Below, one piece after another: positions 4,660 through 62,507 of a stretch of 64,000 bases of DNA. The stretch comes from Lobosporangium transversale (Eukaryota). Below the pieces are notes generated by a model, which did not search any database, was not told the DNA's origin, and saw only the letters and a list, made by a program, of their open reading frames with translations. Location: assembly GCF_002105155.1 (NCBI RefSeq), contig NW_019028988.1, positions 558,001 to 622,000 of the forward strand. Direction: 5' to 3'. Position 1 is the first letter of the stretch. Each line of letters begins with the position of its first letter. The translations under genes and the position numbers were made by a program.

Positions 4660-4696
4660 AAGCAAGGCAAAGCAAAGCAAAGCAAAGCGAAGCAAA
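4660..4696 (+). repeat. (GCAAA)n pentanucleotide microsatellite
   Basis: aagcaaggcaaagcaaagcaaagcaaagcgaagcaaa read directly. Confidence 0.8.
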
Positions 4697-10700: not shown

Positions 10701-11543
10701 TACAGTTTTTTTTTTTGTATTGCAGCAATGGGTGAGAGCAAGAGCACCCAGTTTGGGTTTTTCTGGGCTTGCTTCGACCAACTCGTGTCAGTCTAAAGAG
10801 ATCCTTTCCCCAGTGAGGAAATTCAACAAATTCCAATAGTTGCAGCAACTTGTCGGTTTTCACTCCTCTTTCCCCTTCATCACAACCCTTCTCTTCATTA
10901 CGATCACTCAATCATCTAAATCTAATCATTTCACCATTCATTCTCAAATGCATTCATCACGATCGTGTTGATGAGTATTTGTTTTCTCGGGATATCCATC
11001 TAGTCTCATATTCCCATATATCTCTCCATTTCCTCCACACCTTTCCAGCATCCACACTGATAACTTTTCAACCACTTTACCATTGAAACCATTTCAAGAT
11101 CTATCCAGCATTAAATCCATCACCACCTTACAAACTTCTCTATTTTTTTTTATCCACTCATCCATTCATCCACTCATTCACTCATTCACCCATCCAATCC
11201 AACACTTTTCACCGTTATCCGCCCCTTCGACCTCTTCCCTTCCTCTCCCTTTATTTTGGTAACACACAATTTTACTACATTTCCACGGACCGCTTTGTCA
11301 TCCCACGTTTCGCTGCACACATCCTATTCTACATTTCGCAAATTTGTTTTATTTCTTTCTGTTGGCTGGACCTTGTTCTTCGGTCGGTTATCCGGCGCGT
11401 TGGATACCTTACTGGTTCTACATTTCATCATTCAAATAATCGACCTCGGAAGGCAGAAGACTCATTAACAACAAACAAATCAGTATCATATACTCCGTCA
11501 TCACCTACATCCCTCTCTTTTTCTTTGCCGCTCATCACAGCCA

Positions 11544-28275: not shown

Positions 28276-28418
28276 CACTATGAAGACACTTTAATTTCGA
28301 TTGCCTAGTCTCACAAGTCTTTTTCTCCCTATTTTCTTCACTCTCATTTTGTTTTCCCATATCGACCGCACAAACACAAACAGATTCAGATCGTCGCGGT
28401 TCTGTTCCAATACTCTCC

Positions 28419-34600: not shown

Positions 34601-35480
34601 AGTTGGTGGCAGGGTTCTACACGTGATCATTCAATTCAACAGAATAGCCAGAAAGACCTCAATCGTTTACATTTACTGAGATAATTACAATAATGGAATA
34701 TTTGTACCGCCACCCTGCAAAATACCCAATGTATATAGTATTGTTGATAGATACCAAAGGAGAATACAAAGATAAGAATAAAACTATTGTGGGAACTATG
34801 CTTTTCTTTCTTTTTTTTCTCCTCAAATGTGATAAAAACAAAAAGCGGAATAGAAAGTTTTCAAACTGATAAGTGTTTTAAAGTACAAACCTTGGCATGC
34901 AAGCATCTGTGTTAACATCGTCTGGGGCAGCGTCAATAGAAATGACGGTGTCAGTCGAAGAAGCTGTTGAGCACCTCATAGCCATCATGCGCCATGTCAG
35001 ATTTTCAAGTCTCCGGCCATTGGGCAATAAGTCTTTAGCACGACAGTATTGCTGCCAAACTTGCGCAGCAAAAGGGCTGTCTCGATGCTTATTGGAGGTC
35101 ACTTTGTTGTTATCGCCATTATGATTGCCGCACTCTTTATCTTCTTCATTACCCTTGGCCGGGCTATCACACGGTGCATCGAGATTCTCCCAATTAATAT
35201 TAGAAGCGGAGATAGCCCCTTTAGGTTCTTTAGATGTGCCAGTAGCTATCGTGATACGAGACGGTACATTTGTCAAGGTATCAGACAGAGATAAAGAGGA
35301 TGATGATAAGGATGAGGGGGGACGAGAGATAGGGACAGCTGGTTTCCGTTTAGGGAAATTAATGGTTGCGGCCGAGAGTAAAGATCCAGAGGCCGCGAGC
35401 TGTGAAGAGAAGGATTGTTCTTGATCTTGATGTGTAAGAAAAGCAATTTTCTGATCAGCATGTTGCATAGTTACAGCCAT
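31668..35480 (-). CDS. areA: AreA/Gat1-type GATA transcription factor (about 3 exons: 35480-34891, 34179-~33833, ~33710-31668)
   Basis: N-terminal DUF1752-like motif [32 protein letters not shown] finger [48 protein letters not shown]. Boundaries of the second intron are uncertain, and orthology versus paralogy to areA is untested. Confidence 0.85.
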
Positions 35481-35811
35481 TTTTTTCTTTCTTTCTAGTA
35501 GATCAGATCAGTGTTAGGAAATGATAAGTAAGAAGTGTCGATAACGATTCTATTCAAGTGTTGGAAGAGTGAGAAATAAAGAAAGAGAAAGAGTTATGCG
35601 AAGAAGATAGATGAAGTGAGCAGAAACCTATATTAAGTAATAAGAAGAAAGAGGCCCTCCACAAGCCCACGGACACCAAACTCAAGCTCCAAATAATAAC
35701 CGGTTTGCAATATAGACGTCAATCTTGAACTTCATGATTTTCTTTATATTAATACATTTATTGGTTTATATTACTATTGTACAATAATATGAATTTATCA
35801 AATCAAAATTA

Positions 35812-38618: not shown

Positions 38619-41329
38619 ATGGGAGACCCAGCTGCTGATCTCGCTGTTCAGGGTGTGTGGTCAAAACGATTAGACATGGAGATTCAATTTCAAAGATGAG
38701 TAATGCTGATTGCGTTAATTCCACATATAAAAAAATATATATATATATCGTATTCTCCAGGTACGAACACATCTAGTATAACATCGAAGCGAAGCTTGGA
38801 GCGCTTGGGGTATTTGCAACCATGCCATGTCGAAGGAGCCACGGAAAAGGATTCGCCATTAATGCTAAAATATGTGGTTCAAAAGCCCAGTCGGCGTTCG
38901 CCTGTCATCAACCGCTCTTATTACTACCGTACAGAAACCATACGTTTGTTGGTCGAAGGTTGGATCCAAGAATGTGAGACGCTTGGAATGGATAATTGCG
39001 CCGTAATTAGTCTGGGATGTGGATTGTAAGAATGAATTTTGGTTGTGGCTCTTTTCAATCTGTAATTCTGTTTGATCTACACCTCTCTTTCCTTCTCCAT
39101 GAATGTGTCTATTGAAGGCTACTAGTATTAAATCAACAAGTTGTTTATCTTTTTTATTTTTACTTTTTAGCGATCCAACGTTTTTCCGGCTAAAATTATT
39201 ACAAGAGAGGAGAGAAACCAGGACAAAGCTCAAATATATTGACATTGACTACCCTACGCTCATCATGGAGCGACTCTACATGGTTAGGAATCAGGAAAAG
39301 CTATTTGATCTTCTTCCTGAGAATCCGTCAAAGGACGATGTGGCAGAGTTCGTCTCGGATACATATTCATGTCTTGGCGTTGACTTGAGGAACCTAAATG
39401 AATTGGAGAAGAGGCTTGAAGAAGCAGGTATCACCAAGAAAGGAGGACAGCAACAGACGCGGATGCCCATTCTTGTGGTCTCTGAAGTCGTTCTGGCATA
39501 TCTTGAAGCCGAAGAATCAGATGCTGTCATCAAATTTTTCGCCGACTTCCCTGAAGGTTCGACACAAGAGAAGGGCGTAGTACATCATGACTTTTCATAT
39601 CTGAGTGGCTCTTTAAGTGGACTGTTAATCACTATTTTTTTCCTTTATGATAGCAACTTTTGTCCTGCACGAGCAATGTATCCCAACATTCGATGTAGAT
39701 GAACAAGGGAATGAAAACTTACATCCCTTCGCATTGACGATGTTTCGGCACTTTGAAAGGACCATGACACCTCTCAAGACACTTCGTGAGTATATGAGCA
39801 TTGAGGATCAGCGCGACCGATTCCAAGAGTTGGGGTGGCCCAATTGCGAAATCATGAATATGAACCTGATGGCCGATTTACTTGTTACGCCCAATGAGTC
39901 CGACCATCTCAGGATATCTCAACTGGAGCCTTTTGATGAATACGATGAACAACATTGGATCGGATCTTATTATTTTACTGCCGTCGCCTCAACGGGCCCA
40001 AAGGAGGGTGTATCCGTCCCGACTCGGAGTCCTGATGTCCTTCGAGGCATTGGATTGAGTGCAAAGCTTCAGCACGCTTTGTTTATGACTGAGACTCCTA
40101 TGGATAAATCGAGCTACATCAGTATTGACCATAAGTCAGCATCTGCGTCCTCTTCACAACGTTCGATCGTGGGAAGTATCAAATGGGCAGGAGAAGTTCT
40201 GTTCCCAGGTTTGGACATTAACCGAAAGGGCCATTCGCTTACTATCTTGGGGGACTATGCATATGCTTTTGGAGGCTTTGGTCTTGATGCTTCAGATGGT
40301 CTAGAAGATCAGAGGATTTTCCGCGCTCGGTCGCAACAAACACGGCTAGCCACCATGTTACGGATCAATCTGCAAGATGGAACCTCACAGATGTTACCCC
40401 GTGATGACGACGAACCTGCACCTCGTATGCACCATTCTGCTGTGTCAACGCTGAATGGCTCTACGATATACATGTACGGTGGCAGAGACGGTCCCACGAA
40501 GGTGCATAACGATGTTTGGAGATTCACTCCAGAAAATGGATGGGACCCCATATGGCGCGCCAGAGTGAACCCTATGAGTAACCATCGGGCCCCAAGCGGG
40601 CTCTTTAAGCATACTGCCAATATGATGGTAATTGATGATAAAGAGATGATGGTCGTTTATGGAGGAAGAAATGGAGCTGGAGAAGCTAATGAGACGATCT
40701 GGGCGTTTGTTATTCCGGATAATCAATGGGTGCCATTTATGTGGCGCAGTTCAGAACGGCAGCCAAAATACAAAGGGATCTTTTCACATAGCAGTGTTGT
40801 TGTCAAAGATGAAGACCAGAGGAATGTATTGCTTGTTATTGGGGGGATTCATGGGAAAGATGAAAAGGTTCTTAATTCTGTTACAAGGGTTACGATGGGG
40901 AGAACACTGAATATAGATGAAAACACAGTGCTACATTGGGCAGAAGCTGATGAGATAAGCTTACAAGAGATAAACGACAACAGTAGCGCAGGTAGAAGTA
41001 GTAATAGCGGTGACCATGCTCATGTTCATTCATTATTCAAGCCGAGGTTCGGCCACACGAGTGTGGCTGTTGATGAAGATCGAATCTTGGTCATTGGAGG
41101 AGTCTCATCTCCAGGTCTATTGTTATGGCAAGAGACCGTCGTGGAGATCCGACTAAAGGCTCGTACGTTCCAATATCTACGTCCTTCATCATTTCGAGAA
41201 CTGGTGATGGTAAACCACGCCACTGTATTGGATAACAGCCGAAACCGGATCATTGGTATTGGTGGAGGAGGAACATGTTTTGGTTTTGGGGCGTGGTGGG
41301 ATGCTGTGGGATGGGCTCTAAAGCTTTAG
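38619..41329 (+). CDS. TYW4: tRNA wybutosine-synthesizing protein 4 / leucine carboxyl methyltransferase 2 (LCM domain plus Kelch repeats), multi-exon
   Basis: DLAVQ|GTNTSSITSKRSLERLGY, RRSPVINRSYYYR, VISLGCG, IDIDYP, EVVLAYL and LEPFDEYDE. Kelch repeats PRMHHSA, YGGRDGP and PRFGHT. C-terminal GGGGTCFGFG. Confidence 0.92.
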
Positions 41330-42287
41330 ATGTCTCTGTCTACCGCGTATTATAAACCTATAAAAAAATAAATAAATAAATAAATATTGAAGTCTTGCAT
41401 AGAAATTCGAGTAGAAACGCGACTGCGCAGCAGAGAGAAGAATCTCCTACTCTTTATTCTCGGTACGCATAATCCATATCGCGTCTTTAAATGCACGGAT
41501 AAGCGTTTTTATATCCGCGCGTCGGAAGCCATGGCGCTGCCACGCTGATCAACAGGAAACGGCGGCGGCAGAGCGGAAGTACCATTAAGCGGATCTTTAA
41601 GTAAAAAAATTCAGCCAATCTTTAATAGCAATAAGATATTTTAGGTTCACTTCTGTTGGTGTACAGAAATTGATCCATCCATCACAATGAAACTGTTTCT
41701 TCCCCTGGAGGAATAAATAACCCAGAAAAGAGGTTGTTTGCCTTCGTAAGTTAGAGCCTGAAGCTTAGGATAAACTGCGCACGGATAAAATAAAGGGCCA
41801 TAGACCCCTTGGAAGAGTATTGTTGGCGCAATTATGCCCGACTTACAATCAGTGATCCTCGCCGCTTATTTAAATTGTATAAAAAAATATATTGCGCTTT
41901 GAATGACATGAAATGAAGCCATGATGCATGACCCCCTTCTTTGTACGCATGCATACTCCGCAACTTCATGGGCGCTCGCTACCATCTTTGCTTTTTTTTT
42001 TTTTTTTTTTTTGAGAGTAAATACCCTCATAGCTTTTGGCTTCATACTGAAAGCTTGTCACAGATATGACATAGTGATACTGCTTTGAAATATCAAGCAG
42101 ACGATGTAATGTGTATTTTATCAATGAAGGAGCTCTGGTATAAAAAGCGATCATCAATACAGAGAAAATCGAAAAAAAAAAAAAAAAAAAAAAAGTGTAC
42201 ACGCATCTTAACACCACTTCCATTAGCTTTCAACATCTATAAACTTGCATCTTTCTCCATATAAACAGGGGCCACTAAAAAACCGCC

Positions 42288-44673
42288 ATGTTATCCCTAA
42301 ACACCTCATCCTCTACCTTCACTCAGCCTAGCACCCCAGTTTTGATCGTTGGTGCTGGCCCTACAGGTATTTTTGCAGGTCTTCTTCTAACCAAAATGGG
42401 CATTCCACATCGCTTGATCGAGCGTCAACACGAAGTCTCCAAGCTATCCAAGTCTCTGGTGATCCATGCACGCACTCTTGAGATCTTCCATATGCTTAGC
42501 CACGATCACAGCCATAATCTTCCCAAGATCGACCTCATCAACAAATTCATGAACTCGGGCACATTTTTGGCTGACTTCCATTGCTACCTTGGTACCAAAC
42601 TCTTCTCAACCATCCCAATGCTGAGAAACTCCGAGTCCCATTTCACTGAAGCCCTCCTTATTGAGCAATCCAAGACTGTTACCATTTTGACCGAAGAATA
42701 TGAAAAACTTGGTGGACAAATCGAACGTGGATGGGAATTAATGGATACTAGAGTAATAGAAGAGGGAAAGGGGGAGGAAAGCTTTGGGGTATCTAATCCT
42801 CAGAAGGGGAAAACGTTTGTAGAAACCACAATCCGACGTGTCAAAGCCGGCGTCAACATTCGCTCGAATGAGAGCAAAGTCTTGGGAGCCATTGAACTAG
42901 AGGCTGACCTAAAGGATAAAGAATATGATTACGAAGTGGTCCGATCTGAATATTTGATTGCATCCGATGGGGGTAAATCTACGGTCCGCCATAAGCTGAA
43001 CATCGCTTTTCCAGGTCGGACCCTTGGCAAGAATATAATCATTTACGACGGGCAAGTAACAGCGAACATTCCTGTGGACAAAATTTTGTAAGTGTTTCCT
43101 TATGGACCGTATTCATATCGTTTCACATGTTGCAACATTTCTCGACAGAGTGAGCTTTAGCAATAAAATAACATGCAGCCTTTTTTAATTTACGCACGGT
43201 AGAATCCTTATTGGGGACAGCGGACGTACCGCAATATCATTTCCTTTGGGTGATAATCGTATCCGTCTGATGCTTGACTGTGGTGACATTGCCCCTGGCA
43301 ATGATAAAATCCAGGAGGCGGAAGAGCTCACAATCCCTAAATTCCAGAAGATTCTGGACGAGGCCATTTCCCCAGCCAAAATGCAGATCCTCGACTGTAA
43401 ATGGTTGACCTATTACCGCGTCAATGAGCGCCTTGCAGACCGATACTCAGATAAGGGACGGATCTTCCTGTGTGGAGATGCTGCTCACGTTCACTCGCCT
43501 GCTGGCGGTCAAGGTACCACAATCTTGTTTCGTCTCGAGGAGGAAAAAAAAAAAAGTTGATCCAATTTCACGTTTTCTAGATTGTACTAAAACATACTCT
43601 TCTCTTGCATGAATAAATAACAAAGGATTAAACATGGGGCTTCAGGATGCGTTTAACTTGACTTGGAAAATGTCGCTTGTGCTCAAGGGCTCTGCTCCCG
43701 GATCCATCCTCGACACATATGAAGCTGAACATTCCGAAGTCGCTCGAAATATCGTTAAGCTTTCGGCTGGTCTCTTTGGCGGCGTCATAGCGGAAGGCTT
43801 TTGGCAGAAGCTGCTAAAGCGATTTGCGCTCCTAACAGCGCCCTATATCCTGCCCCGTATACCGCAAGGTCCACCTATGTGCATGGTAAAAAAAAAAAAA
43901 AGTAACAAACAGTAACATACACACTTCTCTTTTAAACAACTTGTTCCTAACTTGGAACTATTATTTCCCTTTAGCTTCGAATTCGATACCGCGAGAATAA
44001 TATCAATAGGAGGTGTCCCACACAATCAGCCCCGGCAGAGGAGTTCCAAGTCGGGGTTCGTGCTCGCGATGGTGCCCTATCGATTATTTGTACCGAAAAT
44101 CTCAGGGACGTCAATGAACAACAGCATCTGCGTCTACATGATCTCCTGATCGGCCCAGGCATTTTCCATATCCTTGTCTTCACATCCGATATGCTGGCTA
44201 AGGACATCGCTACTGACCTCAAAGATATCCGCACAACCGTTGCTTATAATCTTTCTAAAAACATTGAGACCTCTCTTGCTACTTGGGGAGTCAACTGGGA
44301 ACAGACACAGAACAACACGGGCGACGATGCAAAGAATAAGTACCGCAGAAATAGCAATACGGGCCAATCCAAAATGTTCATGATTCATGTAATCACCGCA
44401 CCCATTTCCCAACCCGATTTCGAAACGCTCTCGGTCTTGACAAATAAGTCTTTTGGAGCCGGTAAACTGTATCTAGATGAGGACGCCGCCCTACTACATC
44501 GACGGTATGGTATCCCCACAAGAGGTGGACCAGGCTCCATTGTATTATTACGCCCGGATTCATATATTGCTTACAGAGTCCAAGGCGTAAGTGATTCCGC
44601 ATGGATGGATGTAGATAAGTATCTGAACTCAATCTTGATTCTCCCGTCTAAAAATGTGGAATTAAGGCTGTAA
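42288..44673 (+). CDS. FAD-dependent aromatic monooxygenase (FAD_binding_3, phenol/pentachlorophenol hydroxylase-like), 4-5 exons
   Basis: VLIVGAGPTG, DGGKSTVR, RIFLCGDAAHVHSPAGGQG, MGLQDAFNL and C-terminal LLRPDSYIA. Confidence 0.92.
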
Positions 44674-47117: not shown

Positions 47118-47946
47118 AAAATAAAAATAAAATAAAAAAAAGAATTAGAGGATTGATTTGTCTACATATTAGTTTTTTTTTTTTTTTTTTTTTCTTCCTA
47201 AAGCCATGTTTTACCTTCCACTTCTACCAATGTGCTATCTTTGCGAGATACAATCATGTACACTTCACGATCTTCGAACCGCTTGCCCACAATCCAATGG
47301 TTGGAAGGCGACCGCGTCGTGATCTCTGAAGCACCCGGCATACTTGGTAGCGTGGACAATTTTTAAATAAGTGAAGAGAAGAATTAGGAAATGTCGATAA
47401 ACATCCTTTTCATATAACATAAGATGTATCCTTAGCTTACCGATCAAAGTCTTGTTTGATGTCTAATAATGACAATGCCATATCGGATCCAATAGTGAAT
47501 CCACCTCTGCCAGTTGTAGATCCTAACTGTACCTTGATTGCCAAATTCATTTTGTTAAAGTATACAAATCGGATCTCCTTATCGATTCCACTGCCCCCTC
47601 CACTTCCATTGCCATTATTACTTCCTGGAGAAAATGCGCCCCCTAGTGTGCGTGCTGTGATTGACTCCTTCACCATTTGTCTTGCGACTTCCTCAAGAAG
47701 CGATCGCGTGATAATGCTTTCACTGCTATTACTACTGCCGCTACCATTGGGGTCCAGTAATGGAGGGTCATAGATCATTCCCGATAGAAACTCTTCTAGC
47801 TCTCGTGTAAATTGCTCCGGATTGTCAATCAGCTGTTGCGACGCTGAATTTGCTAGAGACGCAAAAAAGCATATGTTGAGTCCACTTTTGTGCTAGTATA
47901 CGATATGTTGTAAAGGTGATCGATATTGAGGAAATAAAATAATATG

Positions 47947-47988
<42 letters not shown>

Positions 47989-49661
47989 GAAAATAAGTAT
48001 AGCAACAATTATCTCTTTTGTTTGATTACTTTACCTTGAATGTAATTCCCAAATGTTCCTCAACATCCTCACTATTAGCATCCTGCCCGTACCAAAGAGG
48101 ATTCACCTGAGCTTTGCCACCTGCCGTCAGCAGTGCCTCAGACTCCCCGGATGGTCGAGGACTTGACCCAGCGGTGTTTATATCTGGCGCTGAGAGTGTA
48201 TTTGCATTTGAACTGCCCGGGATAGTAATGCCTTCAACACTCCGAATAGATGGTGCTGGCGAGCTGACACGTGAAGCAGGACGAAGAGGCGGTGTTGAAG
48301 GCGGTGTAGTTGCTGAAGGGGATGACCGATAAAATCCAAAAATGCTGGTGTTGGACCATGATTTTCCGAATCTAAATGTGGAAGTTTGCTGAGGCGGTCA
48401 AAAGAAAATAACGAGTCGATGCATATTTGAAGAAGGAGCGATTAGAATAAGATTGATATGAAATGCTTTTTGGCTAAACGAGGATAAACCAAAATAATAA
48501 AAAAAAAGGAAAGGGCCTGTCTCTTTACCTTTCGCTTCCGTGCTTCTTCTTCTTCCCGTCGGTCTAATAATGAGCTCATGCTTGCACTATCGTATCCGGT
48601 TATTTGTAACACATGGTTCCAAACCGCTTTGAGGTCTTCATCTCGAATATCACTGGCCACCAGCTGGTCCTCGAACGTTATCATAGAATGTGTTATCAGT
48701 CCTTTATATCTCTCTCGTACACTCCTCACGATCTGATCAATATTCTGGAACCCGACTCCTGTTTTACTCAGTGGCAAATAATGAATCCCATCCAAGGCTC
48801 GTTCCAATGTCATGTCCTTCTCAAAATTCCAACCAAGGACCCAGGATTCGAAAAACTCTTCTAGTCGCCGCTGTAATGGTCTTGTATTCCCATTATGTGC
48901 TATGACGAGACTTTCCATAGTTCCATTGGCAACCTTGTACATCGCATAAGCCTGTCGAAGTAGTGCTGAAACAATTGCATCATGGATCTCATGCTCTAAA
49001 TATTCAATCACCACGCGGTACTTTCCATCAGCACCCTTAATAGATCGTCTGATTGTTCCAAGTTCTATACACTGAGTCGAACCGACACCCCAGACCGATG
49101 TAGGGACATGGTATCAAGATAAACCAGTCAGATTTAAGGTGCTTTACTGTTGTCATTTTATGGAGAGTATCTGTAGTGTGAGCCTACCAAATGCAGCCAA
49201 TATCCTGGCTCGGCTTCATAAAATACCAGTCGGTTTTTCTGAGAATGCACGTTCTCGCATGGGGCCGTGGGTGAGAATATCCTATTGCACGTTATGATCA
49301 AGGTCAAGGTCAAGGTCAAAGGTCAAAGGCTGTCAAGCGCCAGCCATCTCTTGGTTTTTTTCGTCACGAAAAATTATTTCGAAACCTTCTCATCCATTGC
49401 GCTGGGTCTTGGTTACCGTGCAAAGTTGACCAGTCCTTGTGCTAAACCAATATTTCGCATCTTCACATCCATGGACACGGTCTTTCGAGCCACATAATAG
49501 AGTAATTGTTCATGTTGTGTCTCGTCAGTAGGTCCAAATTCAGGGTTGTAGATGCAAAAGTAGCCTAAAGAAGATGAAGTGGAAGCTGGTCCTGAGGATG
49601 ATGACGATGATGAGGGTCCTACTGCAGGTTTGGGCGAGGTTGCGCCAGATGTGCCGTACAT
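46956..49661 (-). CDS. CCZ1: Vacuolar fusion protein CCZ1 (Mon1-Ccz1 Rab7/Ypt7 GEF subunit), multi-exon
   Basis: LGYFCIYNPEFGPTDETQHEQLLYY..KMRNIGLAQGLVNFAR, LLRQAYAMYKVANG, GIHYLPL, RFVYFNKMNLAIK and STLVEVE|DEVRKLTSLYF match the Ccz1 longin-domain pattern. Confidence 0.88.
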
Positions 49662-50272
49662 TGAGAGTGCCGCTCTAGGCTACCAAGAAAAGGTTAAAAA
49701 AAAAAAAAAAAAGTAATGAAAGAATGCAAGGCAAGAGCAAACATTTTTAGCAGCCCCAAATGTGACGCCCCGAAAACCATGTCATAATCAGGACGCGACC
49801 TTTTTTTTTCTTTTTTAGCGCACTAAACAAATGGTCACGATAATAGATATCACAGTATGGAGAAGGAAAGCATGGTTCTCAATTTCATTTATTGTCCTAC
49901 ATATTGGGTGGACAATAATCTATAATGGATTATGATGCCAAATCCAGCCCTTTTTCCATTTAAGGGTATTATGTTTCATGTCTGTACGTACAAGACATGT
50001 GTCCGTTTTGTGGCTTTTACTCCGACACTTGTCCTGAAATTTGAATTGACATCAAATCCATCGAAATTTTAACAATGTCATCATGGCATGCTAAAGATCT
50101 CTTTCTTTCTTCTTTATTTTACGCCTTCATTCCTCCATACATTCATATACACAATAAAACAATAAAACCTACAATACACAGAGTAGACTTGCCCTCTCCC
50201 CTGACTAAAACTGAGAAAAATAACGGCACATTCGCATTTTCAAAGGTTCATTCCTGCTTGCTCACTTTCAAA

Positions 50273-53200
50273 ATGACAAACAACAACGAAAAGATTTTAT
50301 CCAATTTCACCTGCATGGATTTGGAACAAAGCACCAGTCAGACGAAGCCAACCAAGTCAAGTACTCGCACTGGATCCACTCGTGCAGCACCGAGGAGAAA
50401 AAGAGTTATTCTGACTGACGAAACGACTCCAGAGCCTTCACCAGTGGCACAGACTGCTAGAGTTAGTGCAAAGTCTTTTAAGCGCCCTAGGCGTTGTGAG
50501 GCTGATTCTTTATCCTCAAATGTCCTTCACTCCGGTCCATTGACAGAAGAAGAGCTGGCCCTGGCGAACGCACGGAAGGAGTCGGCGAGAAGTGTGCTGC
50601 AGATGATTTTAGATGATCCAGATTCATCGACGACAGTGAATCAATATAAGACACAGCTCCGGCTGTGGGAGGTATGTTGGATCATCAAAATGTCGCTATG
50701 AGCTATCTCAGACAGGCTATCAAACTAGACGACTTGGCTAATTCTCTTTTTTGTTTTTAGCAATACTGCAATGAAAATTATCAAGGTGACTGTAGCGTCG
50801 ATGCGAAACGCATGCTTGAATACTTCACAACGGTTGTCTTCAAGCGAACAGTAAAGCGATTGATCGGCACAGATCGTTGCTACCGTGGCGCTATTGGGTA
50901 TGCCCAGCAGGGTGGAGGAGATTCTTCGAATTCTCAGGCTGGGGAAGACGCAGTCTATGAGGGAGAAGAGATCGACGAATTAGTCGAGGCAGATATCGAC
51001 GAACATGAACTAAGCGACATGGAGCAGAGACTGGAGACATTAGATAACAGCGAGCAAGTTGATGACGACGACGGCCAAAGCATAGACCAAGGTCAACAAC
51101 AGGGACAGGGTCAGGGACAGGGTCAGGAACAGGATCAGGAACGGAGACAGGGTCAGGGACAGGGACAGGAACAAGGACAGGAACAGGAACAGGATGAAGA
51201 TCTGGAGCTTCAGCTGAGGTCATTGGCACAGAGAGGTAAGAAGGCTCCTCCCTCCTGGGATAATATGGAGCCACCTGAAGGAGTCGACCCACATCAATGG
51301 CAGATTGATATAGCATTGAATGATGAGGAGCGAGCATCACATGAAGCTGTAACTGTTGGGGGTTCAAGCAAGAACATCACGCCGAAGCGGAAGACTGCAG
51401 CCGTTATCAGGACTGAAAATGAAAGAGAACAAGGTATGTAAAGATAACCATGTATTAATATATAAATTGTTATACAGTACTGGGATCCAAACCTTTGGGA
51501 AGGCTCCGCCATCACGCGTACCCCAGGTGACAAGACACCATGGCCGCAACTCAGTGTTAATTATCAATATAAATAGCCTACTAAATTATGACTTAATAAA
51601 CCATTCCTTAATCCTGCATCCACCTTAATGTATCTTTGATTGTTACAATTTACACTAATGGTTGATACTTTTTATTATATATACAATTACTTTTTTTTTT
51701 TTTTTTTTTTTTTTTTGGATATACTTTTGCGTTTGTAGTTATCCTGCAAGCACCAGAGGACAAACATGGCAGCAAAATTGTCTTTGTTCCTCTCACGCTG
51801 GGGACAGTCGCAAATGTTAAGAAGGCTTTGCAATACTTATGGAGGCAACAGTCTTCTTCGACAGCTCCGTATCCCAATCCCGCCCCAAACCCAAGAACGG
51901 ATGTACCACTAGCGGAGGCGATCAAAAATTATGGAGAGAAACTTGTCCATCACAAAGTAACGACAGGCACCTTATCCCGCACTGCCACCTGTGCCGTACG
52001 AGAACCTTACAACACTAAAATGTACCTGCGTATGTTGGCCTTTACATGGCGCATGCTTCCGACGGTTGGAGTAAGCGGCAGGCGACCTTACGACAGTGTT
52101 ACAAGATTTCAGTATATGAGGGAGAGGCTATGCCTCCTTGCACGCCATCATATGTTGCTGCGGGATGAGGACATCCGAAACTTGAACCTGGCTAACACAT
52201 TCAATATTCAGACCCGTCACCCCGCGCCAGGGTCAAAGCTGGCGTCGGGGCTTGTCTTCTGCATCACACGTGGAAAGACAAACCATAAAGGTGTCGAACT
52301 CTATGCGACAGCTTATCGACATAAGCTGTTCTTAAGGTGCACCGTGGGCGGGTTTGCATTTTATATGCTAGAACGGTTCCAGGTAAATGATGCCGTCAGT
52401 CTTGACGCGAGCGTATGATTTTTTCTCATTCAATTACACAAAGTGACATATATCCTTATTTTTTTTTTTCCCTATTGTAGGTGTTCAAGGAGCCTCTTCC
52501 CAATTTTGCGGACCCTGACGAGTGGTACAGCATCAAGGTGCTAACAGGGGGTGGAACAAGCCAAGAACGGTTAGAGAACCGAAAGGAAGCGCTTGTTGGC
52601 CGAACCCAAATGAGCACTACGGCGGCTGTAATGCGTGCCTGCGACGTGCATTCGGCCAAAATTACGCACTCTGGCCGACATGCAGGGGTCTCGGAAGCCT
52701 ACGAAAGAGGCTTAAGCCTGGACGATATTCGCCACTTGGGAAGGTGGGTCATGGGGCAAATGGAGAACTTCTATGCTCCAAAAAACCCAACCAGGGGCGC
52801 TTTTTGTATGGCTCAGTTTGGACCGAATGAGCCTTACTTTATCGAGCGTGATTTGGTCACCCCGCCCTTAGAGCTCCAGCGTCTGGTCTTTCCTTGGATT
52901 GAGGAAAATTTTGATAAAGATATGCCGGAGAGAGCTGACTCCTGGAGAGAGGAGTGCGCCAAAGAAATGCTGGGGGTCGATCCAAATGTCCCGACAGACG
53001 AAGACATTTTTTGGACGCCAATCGAGAAGAAGACGAGCTCGAAACGATTGACCCGTGCCTTCAGCACTGACTCCCTTGTTACACGCATTGGGTTCCTCAA
53101 ACTTCTTGTGCGTATGAGGCGAGTAATCCTTCAGGATGCAGTGCTCTTTTTGAAGCCGAACGACAAGGGGAAAATGTTGGAGAACAAACTCCTCGAGTCG

Positions 53201-54109
53201 TTACCAGAAATCTTTGGTTGCCAGCTCTTTCTGGATTTCCAACATCAATTGCTTCGGGCCATCGACGTACATCGCCGACAAGCAGGCATCATCCAAGCGG
53301 ATGTGCCAGTTAATGCGCAAACTATGGTAAGCGCCATTAACACGTTGTCGGTAGAGGCGCGGGTCTTTCATCAACTCCAGCATGAGACGGTCCAGAAGCT
53401 CGAGGCCCTATCCACCCTTGTGACAGAGCAACAGGAGCAACAGAGGCAGCAACAGGAGCAAATCCACTTACTTCTCCAATCGCTGCAGCAGCAACAAAGC
53501 GCAAATGTGCGGCAGCCTTTTCCATATCATGTGCAGTCTTGCCCGCCCTTTGTGTTTAATCCTTCTCCATTGGCGCCAGCACAGAGCCGCCTAGCTTCTT
53601 TTCCTTCGGTTCCTCAGGCTCCTACTACGCAGGGTCTATATCAAGCTCGCCAGGCCACTCCACCGCAACAGCAGCCATTATTTTCCAACCAATTGCCACC
53701 ATGTCCTCAGCAACAGCCATATCAACATAGCCATGTGCAGGCTCCAATGACCTCAGAGCAGACACAACGATTGCCGGAAGATGAAAGGTATAAAGGCTAC
53801 CTCATGAAAGGCGATGGCAAGCAATTGACGGTCAGGGAAGCATGGGATGAATTCCGTGGGCCCGTTGCTCAGGCAAAGCAGGAAAATCACAAATGGCCAT
53901 TCACAGAGGCGCGTCACAAGGCATTCAGGCGCAGGCGTCAAATTTTCGATCTGATAAAGAATATTGCCGAAAAACAGAAGCGAGACTTCGAAGAGGTAGT
54001 AGACGCACTGACAGCTCAGTACAAGGGTCGGACAATCAATTCCATTCGACTAGAGCTTCTGAAAGACACCGGGAATGACGAAGGCTGCCACCAAGATGCG
54101 GACGAGTAG
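50273..54109 (+). CDS. Crypton tyrosine recombinase (NDC10_II-like YR plus GCR1_C-like domain), copy 1; exons 50273-50671, 50761-51433, 51739-52382, 52481-54109 (1114 aa)
   Basis: Exon lengths sum to 3345 nt, in frame. Catalytic motifs LLRDEDIR (R), RGKTN (K), KITHSGRHAG (HxxR), HLGRW (W) and MENFY (Y). C-terminus YLMK..LTVREAWDEF..KW..AFRRRRQIFDLI is GCR1_C-like. Start codon is uncertain. Confidence 0.9.
51088..51193 (+). repeat. Hexamer repeat (CAGGGT/CAGGGA/CAGGAA) encoding a GQ/EQ tract in the recombinase; also at 55855-55960
   Basis: QGQQQGQGQGQGQEQDQERRQGQGQGQEQGQEQEQ. Confidence 0.85.
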
Positions 54110-54543
54110 ATGAGTAAGGGTAATTTTTTTTTTTCTTTTTTTTTTTTATATATACATATATATATATCCTCGGATACAAATTTAAGCAATAAAGCACAAA
54201 GTAGTGATGGTGTCGGAAATACCAAGACATGAACTGAGCTACAAGAGGCAGAAAACTGTTGGCTGCATCCTTGAGCCAAAAGAGGCTGAGAAAATACAAT
54301 GTACAAGCAATCCATTGTCGTGAAATTTGTGATATTCCAAGGTGTTTAGCATAAGTATCATCCAGGAAAAAGCATTATCGTCAACATTATTAACAAGACA
54401 AAACACCATCAAAGCACTATCAAAGCATTTTTGACTCGACTCGGCTACCAACGCACTATAACAGAAATAATTGAATACTTCATCAATATAAAAACTGTCA
54501 TGTTTAATCATTAACACTGTCTCTACCATAAAAAGATTTTGTC

Positions 54544-54594
54544 TATTTCGCTTCACAAATCCATTTTGTGGAAAAAGATTTGTGAAGCGAAATA
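54544..54594. repeat. 18-bp perfect inverted repeat with 15-bp spacer near the element right end (also 59296-59346)
   Basis: TATTTCGCTTCACAAATC (54544-54561) / GATTTGTGAAGCGAAATA (54577-54594). Confidence 0.95.
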
Positions 54595-54620
54595 TAAAAA
54601 TTTTGTGACTTGGTATCCTT

Positions 54621-54667
54621 CTGTGTCCACCTGTGTCCGCCTGTGTCCATCTGAATGGACACAGGTG
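54621..54667. repeat. Three 10-bp-spaced CTGTGTCC direct repeats plus one inverted copy forming an 11-bp hairpin (also 59373-59419)
   Basis: ctgtgtccac ctgtgtccgc ctgtgtccat ctga atggacacaggtg. Confidence 0.95.
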
Positions 54668-54683
54668 AGCAATTTCGTTTCAC

Positions 54684-56427
54684 AATCTATAATGGATTAT
54701 GATGCCAAATCCAGCCCTTTTTCCATTTAAGGGTATTATGTTTCATGTCTGTACGTACAAGACATGTGTCCGTTTTGTGGCTTTTACTCCGACACTTGTC
54801 CTGAAATTTGAATTGACATCAAATCCATCGAAATTTTAACAATGTCATCATGGCATGCTAAAGATCTCTTTCTTTCTTCTTTATTTTACGCCTTCATTCC
54901 TCCATACATTCATATACACAATAAAACAATAAAACCTACAATACACAGAGTAGACTTGCCCTCTCCCCTGACTAAAACTGAGAAAAATAACGGCACATTC
55001 GCATTTTCAAAGGTTCATTCCTGCTTGCTCACTTTCAAAATGACAAACAACAACGAAAAGATTTTATCCAATTTCACCTGCATGGATTTGGAACAAAGCA
55101 CCAGTCAGACGAAGCCAACCAAGTCAAGTACTCGCACTGGATCCACTCGTGCAGCACCGAGGAGAAAAAGAGTTATTCTGACTGACGAAACGACTCCAGA
55201 GCCTTCACCAGTGGCACAGACTGCTAGAGTTAGTGCAAAGTCTTTTAAGCGCCCTAGGCGTTGTGAGGCTGATTCTTTATCCTCAAATGTCCTTCACTCC
55301 GGTCCATTGACAGAAGAAGAGCTGGCCCTGGCGAACGCACGGAAGGAGTCGGCGAGAAGTGTGCTGCAGATGATTTTAGATGATCCAGATTCATCGACGA
55401 CAGTGAATCAATATAAGACACAGCTCCGGCTGTGGGAGGTATGTTGGATCATCAAAATGTCGCTATGAGCTATCTCAGACAGGCTATCAAACTAGACGAC
55501 TTGGCTAATTCTCTTTTTTGTTTTTAGCAATACTGCAATGAAAATTATCAAGGTGACTGTAGCGTCGATGCGAAACGCATGCTTGAATACTTCACAACGG
55601 TTGTCTTCAAGCGAACAGTAAAGCGATTGATCGGCACAGATCGTTGCTACCGTGGCGCTATTGGGTATGCCCAGCAGGGTGGAGGAGATTCTTCGAATTC
55701 TCAGGCTGGGGAAGACGCAGTCTATGAGGGAGAAGAGATCGACGAATTAGTCGAGGCAGATATCGACGAACATGAACTAAGCGACATGGAGCAGAGACTG
55801 GAGACATTAGATAACAGCGAGCAAGTTGATGACGACGACGGCCAAAGCATAGACCAAGGTCAACAACAGGGACAGGGTCAGGGACAGGGTCAGGAACAGG
55901 ATCAGGAACGGAGACAGGGTCAGGGACAGGGACAGGAACAAGGACAGGAACAGGAACAGGATGAAGATCTGGAGCTTCAGCTGAGGTCATTGGCACAGAG
56001 AGGTAAGAAGGCTCCTCCCTCCTGGGATAATATGGAGCCACCTGAAGGAGTCGACCCACATCAATGGCAGATTGATATAGCATTGAATGATGAGGAGCGA
56101 GCATCACATGAAGCTGTAACTGTTGGGGGTTCAAGCAAGAACATCACGCCGAAGCGGAAGACTGCAGCCGTTATCAGGACTGAAAATGAAAGAGAACAAG
56201 GTATGTAAAGATAACCATGTATTAATATATAAATTGTTATACAGTACTGGGATCCAAACCTTTGGGAAGGCTCCGCCATCACGCGTACCCCAGGTGACAA
56301 GACACCATGGCCGCAACTCAGTGTTAATTATCAATATAAATAGCCTACTAAATTATGACTTAATAAACCATTCCTTAATCCTGCATCCACCTTAATGTAT
56401 CTTTTGATTTTGTAAATTTTTACTTTT

Positions 56428-56469
<42 letters not shown>

Positions 56470-59443
56470 GATATACTTTTGCGTTTGTAGTTATCCTGCA
56501 AGCACCAGAGGACAAACATGGCAGCAAAATTGTCTTTGTTCCTCTCACGCTGGGGACAGTCGCAAATGTTAAGAAGGCTTTGCAATACTTATGGAGGCAA
56601 CAGTCTTCTTCGACAGCTCCGTATCCCAATCCCGCCCCAAACCCAAGAACGGATGTACCACTAGCGGAGGCGATCAAAAATTATGGAGAGAAACTTGTCC
56701 ATCACAAAGTAACGACAGGCACCTTATCCCGCACTGCCACCTGTGCCGTACGAGAACCTTACAACACTAAAATGTACCTGCGTATGTTGGCCTTTACATG
56801 GCGCATGCTTCCGACGGTTGGAGTAAGCGGCAGGCGACCTTACGACAGTGTTACAAGATTTCAGTATATGAGGGAGAGGCTATGCCTCCTTGCACGCCAT
56901 CATATGTTGCTGCGGGATGAGGACATCCGAAACTTGAACCTGGCTAACACATTCAATATTCAGACCCGTCACCCCGCGCCAGGGTCAAAGCTGGCGTCGG
57001 GGCTTGTCTTCTGCATCACACGTGGAAAGACAAACCATAAAGGTGTCGAACTCTATGCGACAGCTTATCGACATAAGCTGTTCTTAAGGTGCACCGTGGG
57101 CGGGTTTGCATTTTATATGCTAGAACGGTTCCAGGTAAATGATGCCGTCAGTCTTGACGCGAGCGTATGATTTTTTCTCATTCAATTACACAAAGTGACA
57201 TATATCCTTATTTTTTTTTTTCCCTATTGTAGGTGTTCAAGGAGCCTCTTCCCAATTTTGCGGACCCTGACGAGTGGTACAGCATCAAGGTGCTAACAGG
57301 GGGTGGAACAAGCCAAGAACGGTTAGAGAACCGAAAGGAAGCGCTTGTTGGCCGAACCCAAATGAGCACTACGGCGGCTGTAATGCGTGCCTGCGACGTG
57401 CATTCGGCCAAAATTACGCACTCTGGCCGACATGCAGGGGTCTCGGAAGCCTACGAAAGAGGCTTAAGCCTGGACGATATTCGCCACTTGGGAAGGTGGG
57501 TCATGGGGCAAATGGAGAACTTCTATGCTCCAAAAAACCCAACCAGGGGCGCTTTTTGTATGGCTCAGTTTGGACCGAATGAGCCTTACTTTATCGAGCG
57601 TGATTTGGTCACCCCGCCCTTAGAGCTCCAGCGTCTGGTCTTTCCTTGGATTGAGGAAAATTTTGATAAAGATATGCCGGAGAGAGCTGACTCCTGGAGA
57701 GAGGAGTGCGCCAAAGAAATGCTGGGGGTCGATCCAAATGTCCCGACAGACGAAGACATTTTTTGGACGCCAATCGAGAAGAAGACGAGCTCGAAACGAT
57801 TGACCCGTGCCTTCAGCACTGACTCCCTTGTTACACGCATTGGGTTCCTCAAACTTCTTGTGCGTATGAGGCGAGTAATCCTTCAGGATGCAGTGCTCTT
57901 TTTGAAGCCGAACGACAAGGGGAAAATGTTGGAGAACAAACTCCTCGAGTCGTTACCAGAAATCTTTGGTTGCCAGCTCTTTCTGGATTTCCAACATCAA
58001 TTGCTTCGGGCCATCGACGTACATCGCCGACAAGCAGGCATCATCCAAGCGGATGTGCCAGTTAATGCGCAAACTATGGTAAGCGCCATTAACACGTTGT
58101 CGGTAGAGGCGCGGGTCTTTCATCAACTCCAGCATGAGACGGTCCAGAAGCTCGAGGCCCTATCCACCCTTGTGACAGAGCAACAGGAGCAACAGAGGCA
58201 GCAACAGGAGCAAATCCACTTACTTCTCCAATCGCTGCAGCAGCAACAAAGCGCAAATGTGCGGCAGCCTTTTCCATATCATGTGCAGTCTTGCCCGCCC
58301 TTTGTGTTTAATCCTTCTCCATTGGCGCCAGCACAGAGCCGCCTAGCTTCTTTTCCTTCGGTTCCTCAGGCTCCTACTACGCAGGGTCTATATCAAGCTC
58401 GCCAGGCCACTCCACCGCAACAGCAGCCATTATTTTCCAACCAATTGCCACCATGTCCTCAGCAACAGCCATATCAACATAGCCATGTGCAGGCTCCAAT
58501 GACCTCAGAGCAGACACAACGATTGCCGGAAGATGAAAGGTATAAAGGCTACCTCATGAAAGGCGATGGCAAGCAATTGACGGTCAGGGAAGCATGGGAT
58601 GAATTCCGTGGGCCCGTTGCTCAGGCAAAGCAGGAAAATCACAAATGGCCATTCACAGAGGCGCGTCACAAGGCATTCAGGCGCAGGCGTCAAATTTTCG
58701 ATCTGATAAAGAATATTGCCGAAAAACAGAAGCGAGACTTCGAAGAGGTAGTAGACGCACTGACAGCTCAGTACAAGGGTCGGACAATCAATTCCATTCG
58801 ACTAGAGCTTCTGAAAGACACCGGGAATGACGAAGGCTGCCACCAAGATGCGGACGAGTAGATGAGTAAGGGTAATTTTTTTTTTTCTTTTTTTTTTTTA
58901 TATATACATATATATATATCCTCGGATACAAATTTAAGCAATAAAGCACAAAGTAGTGATGGTGTCGGAAATACCAAGACATGAACTGAGCTACAAGAGG
59001 CAGAAAACTGTTGGCTGCATCCTTGAGCCAAAAGAGGCTGAGAAAATACAATGTACAAGCAATCCATTGTCGTGAAATTTGTGATATTCCAAGGTGTTTA
59101 GCATAAGTATCATCCAGGAAAAAGCATTATCGTCAACATTATTAACAAGACAAAACACCATCAAAGCACTATCAAAGCATTTTTGACTCGACTCGGCTAC
59201 CAACGCACTATAACAGAAATAATTGAATACTTCATCAATATAAAAACTGTCATGTTTAATCATTAACACTGTCTCTACCATAAAAAGATTTTGTCTATTT
59301 CGCTTCACAAATCCATTTTGTGGAAAAAGATTTGTGAAGCGAAATATAAAAATTTTGTGACTTGGTATCCTTCTGTGTCCACCTGTGTCCGCCTGTGTCC
59401 ATCTGAATGGACACAGGTGAGCAATTTCGTTTCACAATCTATA
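54684..59443 (+). mobile_element. Crypton unit 2 (4752-bp period), tandem head-to-tail copy
   Basis: Bounded by AATCTATA at 54684-54691 and 59436-59443. Translated ORFs are identical to unit 1; the only difference seen is in the poly-T region of intron 2. Confidence 0.9.
55040..58861 (+). CDS. Crypton tyrosine recombinase, copy 2; exons 55040-55438, 55528-56200, 56491-57134, 57233-58861
   Basis: ORF translations identical to copy 1. Confidence 0.9.
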
Positions 59444-59559
59444 GCAGATTGGGGAGGGTGTGAGGCATGATACAAATATAGGGGAAAAAAAAAAGAAAAC
59501 GGATTTTTTTTTTTGCAAAGAGGTTCAAAGAAGGTTGAAATGTACACGGCGGGATTATT

Positions 59560-60308
59560 TTACAACGTCCACTGTTGGATGTCCTCGGCGGTCGTGACCG
59601 TTCTAAGGAGAGAGAGGTTTATAAAAAGCAGTTTAGTATTTGCCATAAAATTTTTTTACAGGATGCAATTGCTCAAGATGGTTCTAGTGACATACTTCAC
59701 AAAATCTAGCGGGTATTCTTTTCGTAGCAAATTGGCCAACACCTTGCCGGGACCAAATGAAATATAGTCATGCACATTTTGTTGGTCTCGCAAGTATCCG
59801 ATACTTGTGTGCCATTGAACAGCTCCCGTAACCTGTCGCACAAGCAAATCTGAGATATCCTCAATCTTTGTGATCTGTGTTTTGAAAATGGTCATAGAGT
59901 ATCAGATTATTTAGTCCTCCGTTTTGTGTTCTTTATCCCATTGCCAATTTTGACAGAGCCACTTACAGGTCTTGCTGTAACATTTGAAATCACATCGATA
60001 GTTGGCTTTTTGAATTGAATATCTTTGAGTGCCTCTTTCATTGCATCTGCTGCAGACTGCATTAGACTACAATGAAAGGGTGCTCTATAAGAAAATAAGC
60101 GTATAAAGAAGTGGTAATCAGTACAACCAGAGGACTAAGCTTCTCAACTTTTTGGGTACGCAGGAAATAAGGAGATGTCGGTCAAAAGACATACGAGACA
60201 GGAAGATCTACAGCGCGTGCTGCAATCTTTTGTGCTTGAAGAACTCTTGATGCATGGTCGACCCCTCGGACTGTGCCGCTGATCACAACTTGAAATGACT
60301 AAAATTTG

Positions 60309-60351
<43 letters not shown>

Positions 60352-62507
60352 TTAAATACGATTTTGTCCAGATAAAGGATTGGCTCTAAGCGATCAAATG
60401 CAAATAATGTTGATCCGGTTGGACATACGCTGTTAACGTTGGCAATCTCAGCCAATTCACCACCTGGTAGTGTCGCCTTGATTTCATCAACAGCCTTTAC
60501 AAGCGCTTCCAACTTTCCAGGTCGCACAACTAGTGCTGACATTGCTGTTGCTTTGTTGGTCACTGCTTCTGTCATTGCTTCGCCGCGGAGCCTCTAGAAA
60601 GAGAGGAAAAATAGTATATGAGCGACTTTGAGTTCCACTTACTAGTGCTTAAAATGCACAATAACATAATAAAAATAAAAATAAATAAAATTAAAAAAAA
60701 GTTGCTATTGCGATGTAGAACTTACGACAAGTTTAACAGCATCCTGGAGACCCACGGCCTTTGTTGCGACGAGTGCAGAATATTCACCCAATGAGTGACC
60801 CAGAGCATATTTGCATGATTCTTCAACCTTGAATCCACGTTCACTCTCCAAGACTCTTAGCATAGCAATTGATGTGGTAAGAATGGCAGGTTGTGCATTT
60901 TCTGTTCTGGTCAAATCTTCCTGTGAGCCTTCAAACATGACATGCTTCAGTGTGCCCTGGAGAGCTTCATCTGCCTCATCCACGACCTGACGCGCCACCG
61001 GATAGGCATCATATAGATCCTTGCCCATCCCAACAAATTGCGATCCCTGACCTATTGAGCGAAGATATGGCGAGAGAACGCAGGTTAAGTACGATAATCA
61101 TGCTTGATTGCAACTAAGCCCCATAAACTCTTTCTTCATCCACACAGCAATCCCGAATGTAAAAATAAAACAAGATTTAACAATCGCTCACTCGCAGTGC
61201 AGACGAGACGCAGATGGGAACAATAATAACGTCAGAAAATTTTCTACGCTTTCAAATAATCTCGTTCAAAATAAGGGAAAAAAAAGTAAAAAAGAACCAA
61301 TCTGCCTTTGGTATTAAGTAGCAAGTCAGTAAGTAACATCGTGAGAAAAAAAAATAGACTTTTTCATCTCTTCGAATTTCTCCCCAACCAAAAACAGTTC
61401 CCACGAGGGAGAGCAGTTGTTGGAGATACAATTTGAGATGAGCTTGGGGCTGAGCTTTACATCTTCCATTTATTTCTTTCCACGGGTGCTGTGTTCCGAT
61501 GTAAGTGTGTTGTAATATAATGTATTATTATGTTGTAATTTGTCTTGTTCCTGCACCTGAGATGGAAAAAGGCGTGATTTCATGGCAAAATAATAAACCA
61601 AGGTTCAAACTCCCGGCTCGTCTCTTTTTAGGCACTCCTTTTCCCAGTCACGAACTGATTAACTGACATGAGCTGCTCTTTCTGACTCTATGTCTCACAT
61701 GCATAAAGTGTCATCTTTTTTATCATTGCCCTGGTCTCCTGCCTGGATTTATTTACAGGATAGGATACCTTCCCCACATTTTTCTTTTTTCGTCATTTGG
61801 GTTTTCCCTTACTTCTCCCGTCAGTAATTGATTGTCAATGATCCTTTTTTTCTTTTTTTTTGTGGTTGCTGGCATATTTCATATGCACATCCTATTTGTT
61901 GCTCCTATTATCCCCAAGCCCTCAATATATTAATAAAACGAACCTGGAAAGAGGATTGCCCAATTATTATTATCGCCACCGGATGACGTCTAGTTGCATT
62001 CATTTAGTATAGAATTTTTTTTTTTTTTTTTTTTTTAGTCCAAGTAAAAATATTCGCGTGTTAATACACATAGAGATATAACAACACCTCTCGGACAAAC
62101 ACGAATGAAAAGAGGAAAAAAACACGAAAATAAAAAACATATTGATCCATTACCAATGATCTTCTATTGCGTGGGATAAATCTTGGCCGAGGAGCATTGG
62201 GGGTTGTGGCAGTTGTAGAAAGCGATGAAGACGTTGAGGAGGAAGCCAATGTGGTAGTTGTAGTAGCTGTTGCAGTGGATATCGTTGTAGCTGAGGAGCT
62301 TGAAGGTGAGTTTACAGTCGAGTTTGCAGTTGTGGTTGCTGTGGTTTTTGCTGAGGAAGCAAACGGTACTCTGGGGGTATTTGCTGTTGATACTATAGCA
62401 GGCGCGGCAGATCTGGAGACTGTAGCTGTTGTTGTTGGTTTTGACAAGATGGAGGCTATGGGTGCTGCCTTGTCAAGAATCGCTGAGCGGACGGTTGTGC
62501 AGGCCAT
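59560..62507 (-). CDS. MCT1: Mitochondrial malonyl-CoA:ACP transacylase (FabD/Mct1), about 8 exons; 5' exons 62507-62154, 61989-61944, then 61051 onward; last exon 59602-59560
   Basis: Spliced AILFPG|QGSQFVGMGKDLY, LTRTENAQPAIL, GHSLGEYSAL, IANVNS, APFHCSLM, LLVRQVTGAVQW and FGPGKVL. The Ser/Thr/Arg-rich N-terminal exon resembles a mitochondrial presequence (its assignment is inferred). Confidence 0.9.

Follow-up and report, generated by a model that had tools for sequence, protein, structure and literature searches.

A multicopy CryptonF transposon of Lobosporangium transversale, present as a head-to-tail pair with a predicted mirror-image recombination core

Introduction

In the passages of PMC3212892 that treat them, CryptonF transposons encode a single protein that unites a tyrosine recombinase (YR) with a GCR1_C domain, and they end in short terminal direct repeats without terminal inverted repeats; the elements listed there with a length span 1.8-6.0 kb, occur in 2-24 copies and carry repeats of mostly 6 bp. 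CryptonF-1_cRei of Chlamydomonas has been observed moving, and in the account given of it the copy number grows despite excision (PMC9977147). The excision-integration model of Cryptons is attributed in both sources to Goodwin et al., and a 2026 review states that the mechanism of Crypton transposition lacks experimental demonstration (PMC13565253). Here we describe a CryptonF element in a 64-kb stretch of DNA from Lobosporangium transversale (contig NW_019028988.1, positions 558,001 to 622,000; hereafter the window, with positions counted from its first letter), where the original prediction had recognized a tyrosine recombinase gene and taken it for part of a mobile element rather than for a domesticated Ndc10-like host gene. 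Our analysis supports that reading, assigns the gene to a multicopy CryptonF transposon, and shows that the element is a near-identical head-to-tail dimer at 49917-59443, which the first reading had overlooked.

A eukaryote-native recombinase is not new in itself, as Flp, Cryptons and Starships are already known, and published work covers the Crypton family, including its domain architecture, direct repeats and activity in an alga (PMC3212892, PMC9977147, PMC13465315, PMC13469147). A search of literature titles and abstracts, with Goodwin 2003, Repbase and bioRxiv supplements outside its scope, returned nothing on Crypton tandems, an inverted core site, motif clusters or Mortierellaceae Cryptons. 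For the recombination sites, the closest models are Cre/loxP and Flp/FRT, in which inverted arms surround a 6-8-nt spacer, and the Cre pentad numbering follows the same source (PMC4381057).

Results

The 8-bp direct repeat AATCTATA occurs three times in the window, precisely at the three boundaries of the pair (Table 1), and no long inverted match between the element ends was found among the self-BLAST matches listed; short terminal direct repeats without terminal inverted repeats are the end type of CryptonF. The two units are identical save for about 60 bp beside the long poly-T of intron 2. Because DNA contigs of three sequencing runs agree fully with unit 1 as far as 51678, the unit-2 form at this place may be a consensus error.

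As predicted, the recombinase gene splices in silico into four exons that yield 3345 nt (1114 amino acids plus stop) with no internal stop, and its introns of 89, 305 and 98 nt are all of the GT-AG type. Exon 2 contains the beginning of a predicted N-terminal DNA-binding domain together with an acidic, GQ-repeat insert, and the GCR1_C-like tail occupies about 53828-54010 in exon 4. Pfam NDC10_II was found above its cutoff of 26.3 on exon 4 (41.8 bits) and under it on exon 3 (20.9 bits). The GCR1_C match at exon-4 residues 450-510 reached 22.9 bits against a cutoff of 23 (E 1.1e-4), which is borderline by Pfam alone and makes the earlier label "GCR1_C-like" an apt one; in addition, a family profile built from 108 homologs aligns with the C-terminal domain of Ndc10. 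The Pfam scan of the four exons, which did not extend to short overlapping antisense open reading frames, returned nothing further than a weak SlyX (coiled coil) match. In common with CryptonF, this is a DNA element that has introns and neither a reverse transcriptase nor a DDE transposase. The closest named homologs of the recombinase are Mortierellaceae proteins, which points to a host that most likely belongs to this family. Starships have as their hallmark a captain recombinase (DUF3435); this candidate was rejected, as Pfam found nothing of the captain type on the four exons and the 4.8-kb unit is devoid of cargo.

The six coordinates proposed for the catalytic residues are the first codon bases of R499, K537, H635, R638, W661 and Y670, which by alignment are the active-site set of the recombinase. 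Conservation was assessed in the 103 of 174 homologs that span R499-Y670 in one BLAST segment: the residues are kept in 99, 101, 97, 98, 100 and 100 of them, respectively, and the full set of six in 90. Among solved structures, the profile of the 108 homologs was best matched by Ndc10 (E 4.7e-22), in which a serine stands at the first catalytic arginine and the H-x-x-R/W/Y stretch is unmatched. The same profile aligned without gaps to residues 288-330 of Cre, with H, R, W and Y falling on H, R, W and Y, an H-to-W spacing of 26, equal to that of Cre (289 to 315), and a W-to-Y spacing of 9, at an E value of about 0.5 that is weak alone. The expected agreement of these residues with the YR active site was thus borne out. 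A folded model of the homolog P0001 (49% identical over residues 357-860; pLDDT 75, pTM 0.67) matched Ndc10 (E 1.5e-6), then the Cre/Tre (E about 2e-3), Flp and XerH folds. Exon 4, which carries half the domain, was modelled with a mean pLDDT of 62, poor over the catalytic half, and gave no Foldseek match at E <= 0.001, an uninformative outcome given the missing half; a phmmer search of the related protein P0002 against the PDB returned one match, due to chance, and viral contigs contained no relative (three pattern matches, none confirmed). The recombinase is predicted to be catalytically competent and the element autonomous.

Four public runs, each from a different study (X1, X3, X4 and X7), supplied contigs that were placed on unit 1 with its left flank, and those of three were also placed on the junction; runs X2, X5 and X6 come from the same sample as X1 and stand outside the comparison, and X8 had next to no matching words. 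Contig depth, a rough guide and no true copy number, amounted at the element ends to 2158-2242 in X1, 148-160 in X3 and 161-173 in X4, against 115-126, 7-8.5 and 6.4-8.7 for single flanks, which suggests roughly 18-20 element copies, the deleted derivative included. The 3' half of the gene was shallower (1545-1550, 76-85 and 92-99 in X1, X3 and X4), and a deletion joint leading from 52730 to 54237 fills the shortfall with depths of 607, 34.5 and 52.6. This derivative, of which about 5 copies lie elsewhere in the genome, keeps both ends and has lost W661, Y670 and the GCR1_C-like tail. Loose contig ends yielded three further left flanks and one further right flank, and the right flank that the pair has in the window was recovered in X3 and X7. 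X1 also yielded two tiny contigs, of depth 1250 and 900, that were inconsistent with their neighbours and were left out of the counts. Like CryptonF, the family is dispersed and multicopy; the depth and the other flanks together rule out a single-copy host gene. The left flank in X7 is absent from the 64-kb window. As a separate observation, the right flank of the pair (window 59000-60500) is joined in X7 to the end of a deletion derivative whose sequence departs from the window by about 2%, and the left-side host exons of X7 are without differences from the window, unlike the right-end element sequence; this right-flank pattern is possibly that of one target site reused by different copies, or of a chimeric contig.

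X7 was treated as a probable RNA run, since five introns of host genes (through six joints) and two of the element are missing from its contigs. The predicted introns were confirmed in part by this run: introns 1 and 2 are skipped exactly, and a joint for intron 3 is absent. Intron 3 separates R/K from H/R/W/Y, and its retention leads to a stop at codon 584, upstream of the latter group. Exon 3 ends at Q381 of P0001 and exon 4 picks up in register at 382-384, so that intron 3 rests on homology, namely on its colinear position in homologs. The element copies in X7 are diverged from the window, by about 2% in the right end, and X7 is probably another strain; among its coding differences listed, 11 of 21 are synonymous, with several copies mixed.

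The original prediction had further proposed target sites in cis, and these could now be located at the element boundaries. The joined ends read TCACAATC-TATAATG-GATTATGA, an inverted core in which 7 of 8 arm positions are mirrored around a 7-nt spacer. The pattern AATC-N7-GATT occurs three times in the 64 kb against about one expected, in all cases at element boundaries, which share arms; an arm symmetry of 7/8 was reached by chance at 61 of 3000 random host places and is modest evidence alone. The independent test of the core layout is L004, a metagenome contig whose gene is 48% identical at the amino acid level. Here AGTCTA occurs only at 72 and 4734 and bounds a unit of 4662 bp, with AGTC-TATAACA-GACT at its left end and TTCACAGTC-TA at its right end; the junction inferred from them is 7/9 inverted, equals the score of the window's and has A-T changed to G-C in both arms. 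The element end in the relative L002 reads TTCGTAGTCTA, and L003 lacks the core motif up to its contig end. In three of the four left flanks the sequence is TAATC, which mirrors the left arm and does not copy the CAATC of the right end (one was inferred from the start of a contig match), and the host-side right arm in the window has GATT in register. At the left ends seen, the spacer is that of the element from the second base, and at the right ends that of the host from about the fourth (one mismatch position inferred), a pattern of origin from which we infer a crossover at the left edge of the spacer. The second right flank in X1 and X3 reads AATC-TATTT-GATG, that is, core, five letters and then GAT, and L002:3412-3424 reads AGTC-TACTT-GATT, also two letters short of the 7-nt register; these five-letter spacings may hint at a variable spacer length.

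Inside the ends, motifs of the GGACAC type are clustered. In addition to the four TGTGTCC/GGACACA motifs of the right end (Table 1), one further copy stands at 49998 inside the left end. Clusters were examined in the window and in L002-L005, as the other five loci stop before the gene's 3' end. GGACA(C/T) was found four times in the window, three times in L002 and twice in L004 at no more than 70-100 nt from the core, and L003 has four such motifs near its end; a cluster inside the right end is hence a feature of the window and three of the four relatives, and none of 712 host 70-nt bins contains at least three motifs. The clusters resemble the Hot1 site GGGACAAA. The C-terminal region of Hot1 reportedly binds GGGACAAA-related sequences, a finding credited to Gomar-Alba et al. 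2015. Hot1 carries a GCR1_C domain, as stated in PMC3212892. The GGACAC-type clusters are candidate accessory (arm-type) sites, which the GCR1_C-like tail would likely bind. Nearby, still within the right end, positions 54533-54604 of the window form an inverted repeat of 72 bp that is imperfect (79%), and its TCACAAA/TTTGTGA repeats resemble the core arm.

A contig of 52-53 nt in which the right end is joined to the left end was recovered at a depth of 791 in X1 and 61 in X3. These depths correspond to about 6-7 single-copy depths, about a third of those at the element ends, and the contig carries sequence unique to both element ends. At 50191 the window haplotype looks like a minority of about 3 single-copy depths (1867 against 2242), and its differences from the majority contigs are shared by both units, which likely derive from one local parent.

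Table 1. Features of the CryptonF pair and its recombinase genes, in window coordinates
Feature	Position	Strand	Remarks
CryptonF unit 1	49917..54683	+	4767 bp; self-BLAST 49917-54691 vs 54684-59443, 99.4%
CryptonF unit 2	54684..59443	+	4752 bp to 59435 plus closing 8-bp repeat; global alignment
Left boundary (attL-like)	49909..49935	+	Host CAATAATC, spacer TATAATG, element arm GATTATGA; AATCTATA at 49917-49924
Head-to-tail junction	54680..54702	+	TCACAATC-TATAATG-GATTATGA; 7/8 inverted; sequence expected in an excised circle
Right boundary (attR-like)	59432..59454	+	Element arm TCACAATC, spacer TATAGCA, host GATTGGGG; repeat at 59436-59443
Recombinase exon 1	50273..50671	+	aa 1-133; intron 1 skipped in run X7
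Recombinase exon 2	50761..51433	+	Intron 2 skipped in X7; homology to P0002/P0003
Recombinase exon 3	51739..52382	+	R499 (52161), K537 (52275)
Recombinase intron 3	52383..52480	+	98 nt; relatives L001-L003 break at same position
Recombinase exon 4	52481..54109	+	H635, R638, W661, Y670, helical region, Q/P linker, GCR1_C-like tail
Second recombinase gene copy (unit 2)	55040..58861	+	Coding sequence identical to first copy
Stretch absent from deletion derivative	52731..54236	+	Joint in 4/4 runs; 13 letters matching 52733-52745 retained
TGTGTCC/GGACACA motifs	54621..54665	.	Four inside right end: three direct, one inverted

Fungal host genes flank the pair: to its left lies a CCZ1-like longin gene, to its right one for an acyltransferase. 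For the former (47200-49661, minus strand), X7 shows two splice forms of the first intron, with joints to 49416 and 49385, the latter meeting a stop at once. Elsewhere the window contains long open reading frames of 350, 321 and 739 aa without a Pfam match (11469-15912, plus strand), C2H2 zinc-finger genes at 2243-4702 (minus) and 28284-29423 (plus) that are 79% alike over 179 bp, an AreA-like GATA gene (31668-35507), a kinase with ankyrin repeats (21357-23886), a leucine carboxyl methyltransferase-Kelch gene (39103-41329) and a FAD monooxygenase (42279-44673). The related Crypton gene of L001 harbours two self-inverted repeats of 180-200 bp (L001:90-285 and L001:1049-1246), 87% alike and similar to miniature inverted-repeat transposable elements, of which L001:1049-1246 sits at the intron-3 position.

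Discussion

Apart from an empty site, the element displays all testable features of CryptonF. We consider it probable that this multicopy CryptonF, here in the form of a head-to-tail pair, is moved by its tyrosine recombinase at the mirror-image core of its joined ends. The recombinase would bind two inverted arms (AATC..GATT; in longer form TCACAATC/GATTATGA) around the 7-nt spacer and exchange strands at the spacer's left edge, where only two to four bases (AT, ATA) are common with the host. On excision, the two ends would be joined, right to left, in a circle, which could integrate at host sites bearing a loose resemblance to an arm. Since resident copies keep one perfect arm per end, they would likely be the best available target, and the dimer and the many junctions could have arisen through re-entry of circles at resident ends; alternatively, the recombinase may have driven an unequal exchange between the right end on one sister chromatid and the left end on the other. 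The GCR1_C-like tail, positioned on the GGACAC-type clusters, would use them as accessory sites inside the ends. Such a mechanism extends the model of Goodwin et al. and could account for the copy gain in Chlamydomonas.

A broader proposal, which we regard as speculative, is that CryptonF elements in general recombine via a lambda-integrase-like site, with inverted arms, a 7-nt overlap and GGACAC accessory sites read by GCR1_C that would be ancestral to the site of Hot1; exchange would be biased to one overlap edge, with one product strand kept, and the elements would amplify by stacking on their own ends as tandem arrays or circles. If true, such stacking would explain how Cryptons gain copies despite excision.

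Several observations weigh against movement at the mirror-image core, or narrow what speaks for it. The three DNA runs may represent one strain, with X1 possibly the source of the window assembly, given that flanks are common to X1 and X3, and variants to X1, X3 and X4. Between the window copy and the majority contigs there are 8-10 differences, common to both units; those listed include A732T, T965A, I1060F and one missing codon, none of them catalytic. No empty site was found among the 24 of 62 loose ends listed, a comparison in which the element's two flanks were not taken jointly. The host-side right arm matches at one of two sites in this genome and at neither of two in the relatives L002 and L004; given its frequent absence, a full mirror site would not be required in targets. 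The junction contig extends 23 and 22 letters to either side of the 8-bp repeat and so fails the 31-letter rule for bridging, and contigs do not discriminate circles from tandems. The motif patterns were derived from the very loci counted, and L005 is without a motif cluster in the 1.1 kb 3' of its gene. The fold comparison with Cre, Flp and Ndc10 proposed at the outset was made with the homolog P0001 in place of the window protein. Finally, in X7, which lacks the intron-3 joint, one contig continues past the end of exon 3 into the intron.

This last contig bears on the alternative that survives best, a tentative one in our judgement, according to which the CryptonF was mobile recently and now makes little or no active enzyme, as intron 3 is retained and truncated products of the deleted copies possibly repress. 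In X7, accordingly, no joint for intron 3 is listed and the deletion joint is present, and translation of the retained form would halt at codon 584, as described above. Nevertheless, contigs lose rare forms, two joints at repeats were dropped in X7, this run is probably from another strain by its right-end divergence of about 2%, and the position of intron 3 is colinear with homologs. Moreover, a state of low activity is compatible with recombination at the mirror-image core, as a regulatory state of the same element.

We think it unlikely that the dimer arose without the recombinase, through slippage of replication or through host repair acting on the 8-bp repeats, or that it is an assembly artefact, with the symmetry a product of chance and the direct repeat alone of importance. 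The identity of the units would fit such an origin, as would the chance of about 2% per site for the symmetry and the host-side right arm that is often absent, but short-read data from two studies contain the exact junction in abundance, the symmetry persists in L004 although both of its arms differ, and the minority haplotype of the window, at about 3 single-copy depths, fits a real local pair.

Slightly less probable still, most junctions could belong to extrachromosomal circles that are free and perhaps maintained, at some 6-7 for each genome equivalent, with the chromosomal dimer a minor product or an assembly echo. A circle yields exactly such a junction, which in both X1 and X3 reaches about a third of the depth at the ends. 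However, the window places the junction between host genes, and that share far exceeds what a transient intermediate would leave, compared with the 36 circle reads against 6,959 terminal reads in the figures reported for a Starship (10.64898/2026.09.21.753150). Chromosomal tandems are therefore favoured, and by this analogy the abundant junctions point to such tandems, the window holding one example. A domesticated single-copy host gene of the Ndc10/Gcr1 type, duplicated by accident, would agree with Ndc10 as best solved-structure match by profile and by fold, but we discard it as highly improbable, since the gene retains all six catalytic residues and stands at about 18-20-fold depth in an element with other flanks, terminal repeats and a deleted derivative.

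With an intact coding sequence, exact ends and a predicted core that has a natural compensatory variant, the element supplies material for experimental tests; it further offers candidate accessory sites, a deleted derivative of natural origin and an end-to-end junction that is abundant. If the GCR1_C-like tail binds the GGACAC clusters, the end of a transposon would be linked to the sequence bound by a yeast transcription factor of domesticated origin. As a compact integrase from a eukaryote with loose targets, the enzyme is of possible interest for the engineering of oleaginous fungi, and the same looseness argues against its use as a precise substitute for Cre.

Comparison with known systems

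The closest described elements are those of CryptonF, with which the window element shares the domain plan and the end type, its length and copy number lying within the range listed in PMC3212892. It differs from them in its repeat of 8 bp, compared with mostly 6 bp in that list, which includes no element from Mortierellaceae, and in the inverted core with a 7-nt spacer, the subterminal GGACAC clusters and the tandem copies, which are undescribed in the passages of that source on CryptonF. CryptonF-1_cRei is similar in that a short donor motif at one end corresponds to near-identical targets, whereas its target is CAYCG, its account in PMC9977147 describes neither tandems nor a symmetry of the junction, and movement was seen there and not for the window element.

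As in Cre/loxP and Flp/FRT, the pentad R, K, H, R and W plus the tyrosine is combined with arms around a spacer. The arms of the window element are shorter, at 8-9 bp and imperfect compared with the 11-13 bp given for those systems (PMC4381057), its host targets are looser, and its protein has an extra, predicted C-terminal DNA-binding domain. Ndc10, Gcr1, Msn1 and Hot1 possess a homologous recombinase fold and C-terminal domain, but they are host genes without a catalytic site, whereas the window gene keeps the site and is multicopy. Starships, likewise fungal elements that are moved by a tyrosine recombinase and form an end-joined circle, belong to another recombinase family and carry giant cargo, and in the figures reported for one of them junction reads make up about 0.5% of the ends, compared with about a third here (10.64898/2026.09.21.753150).

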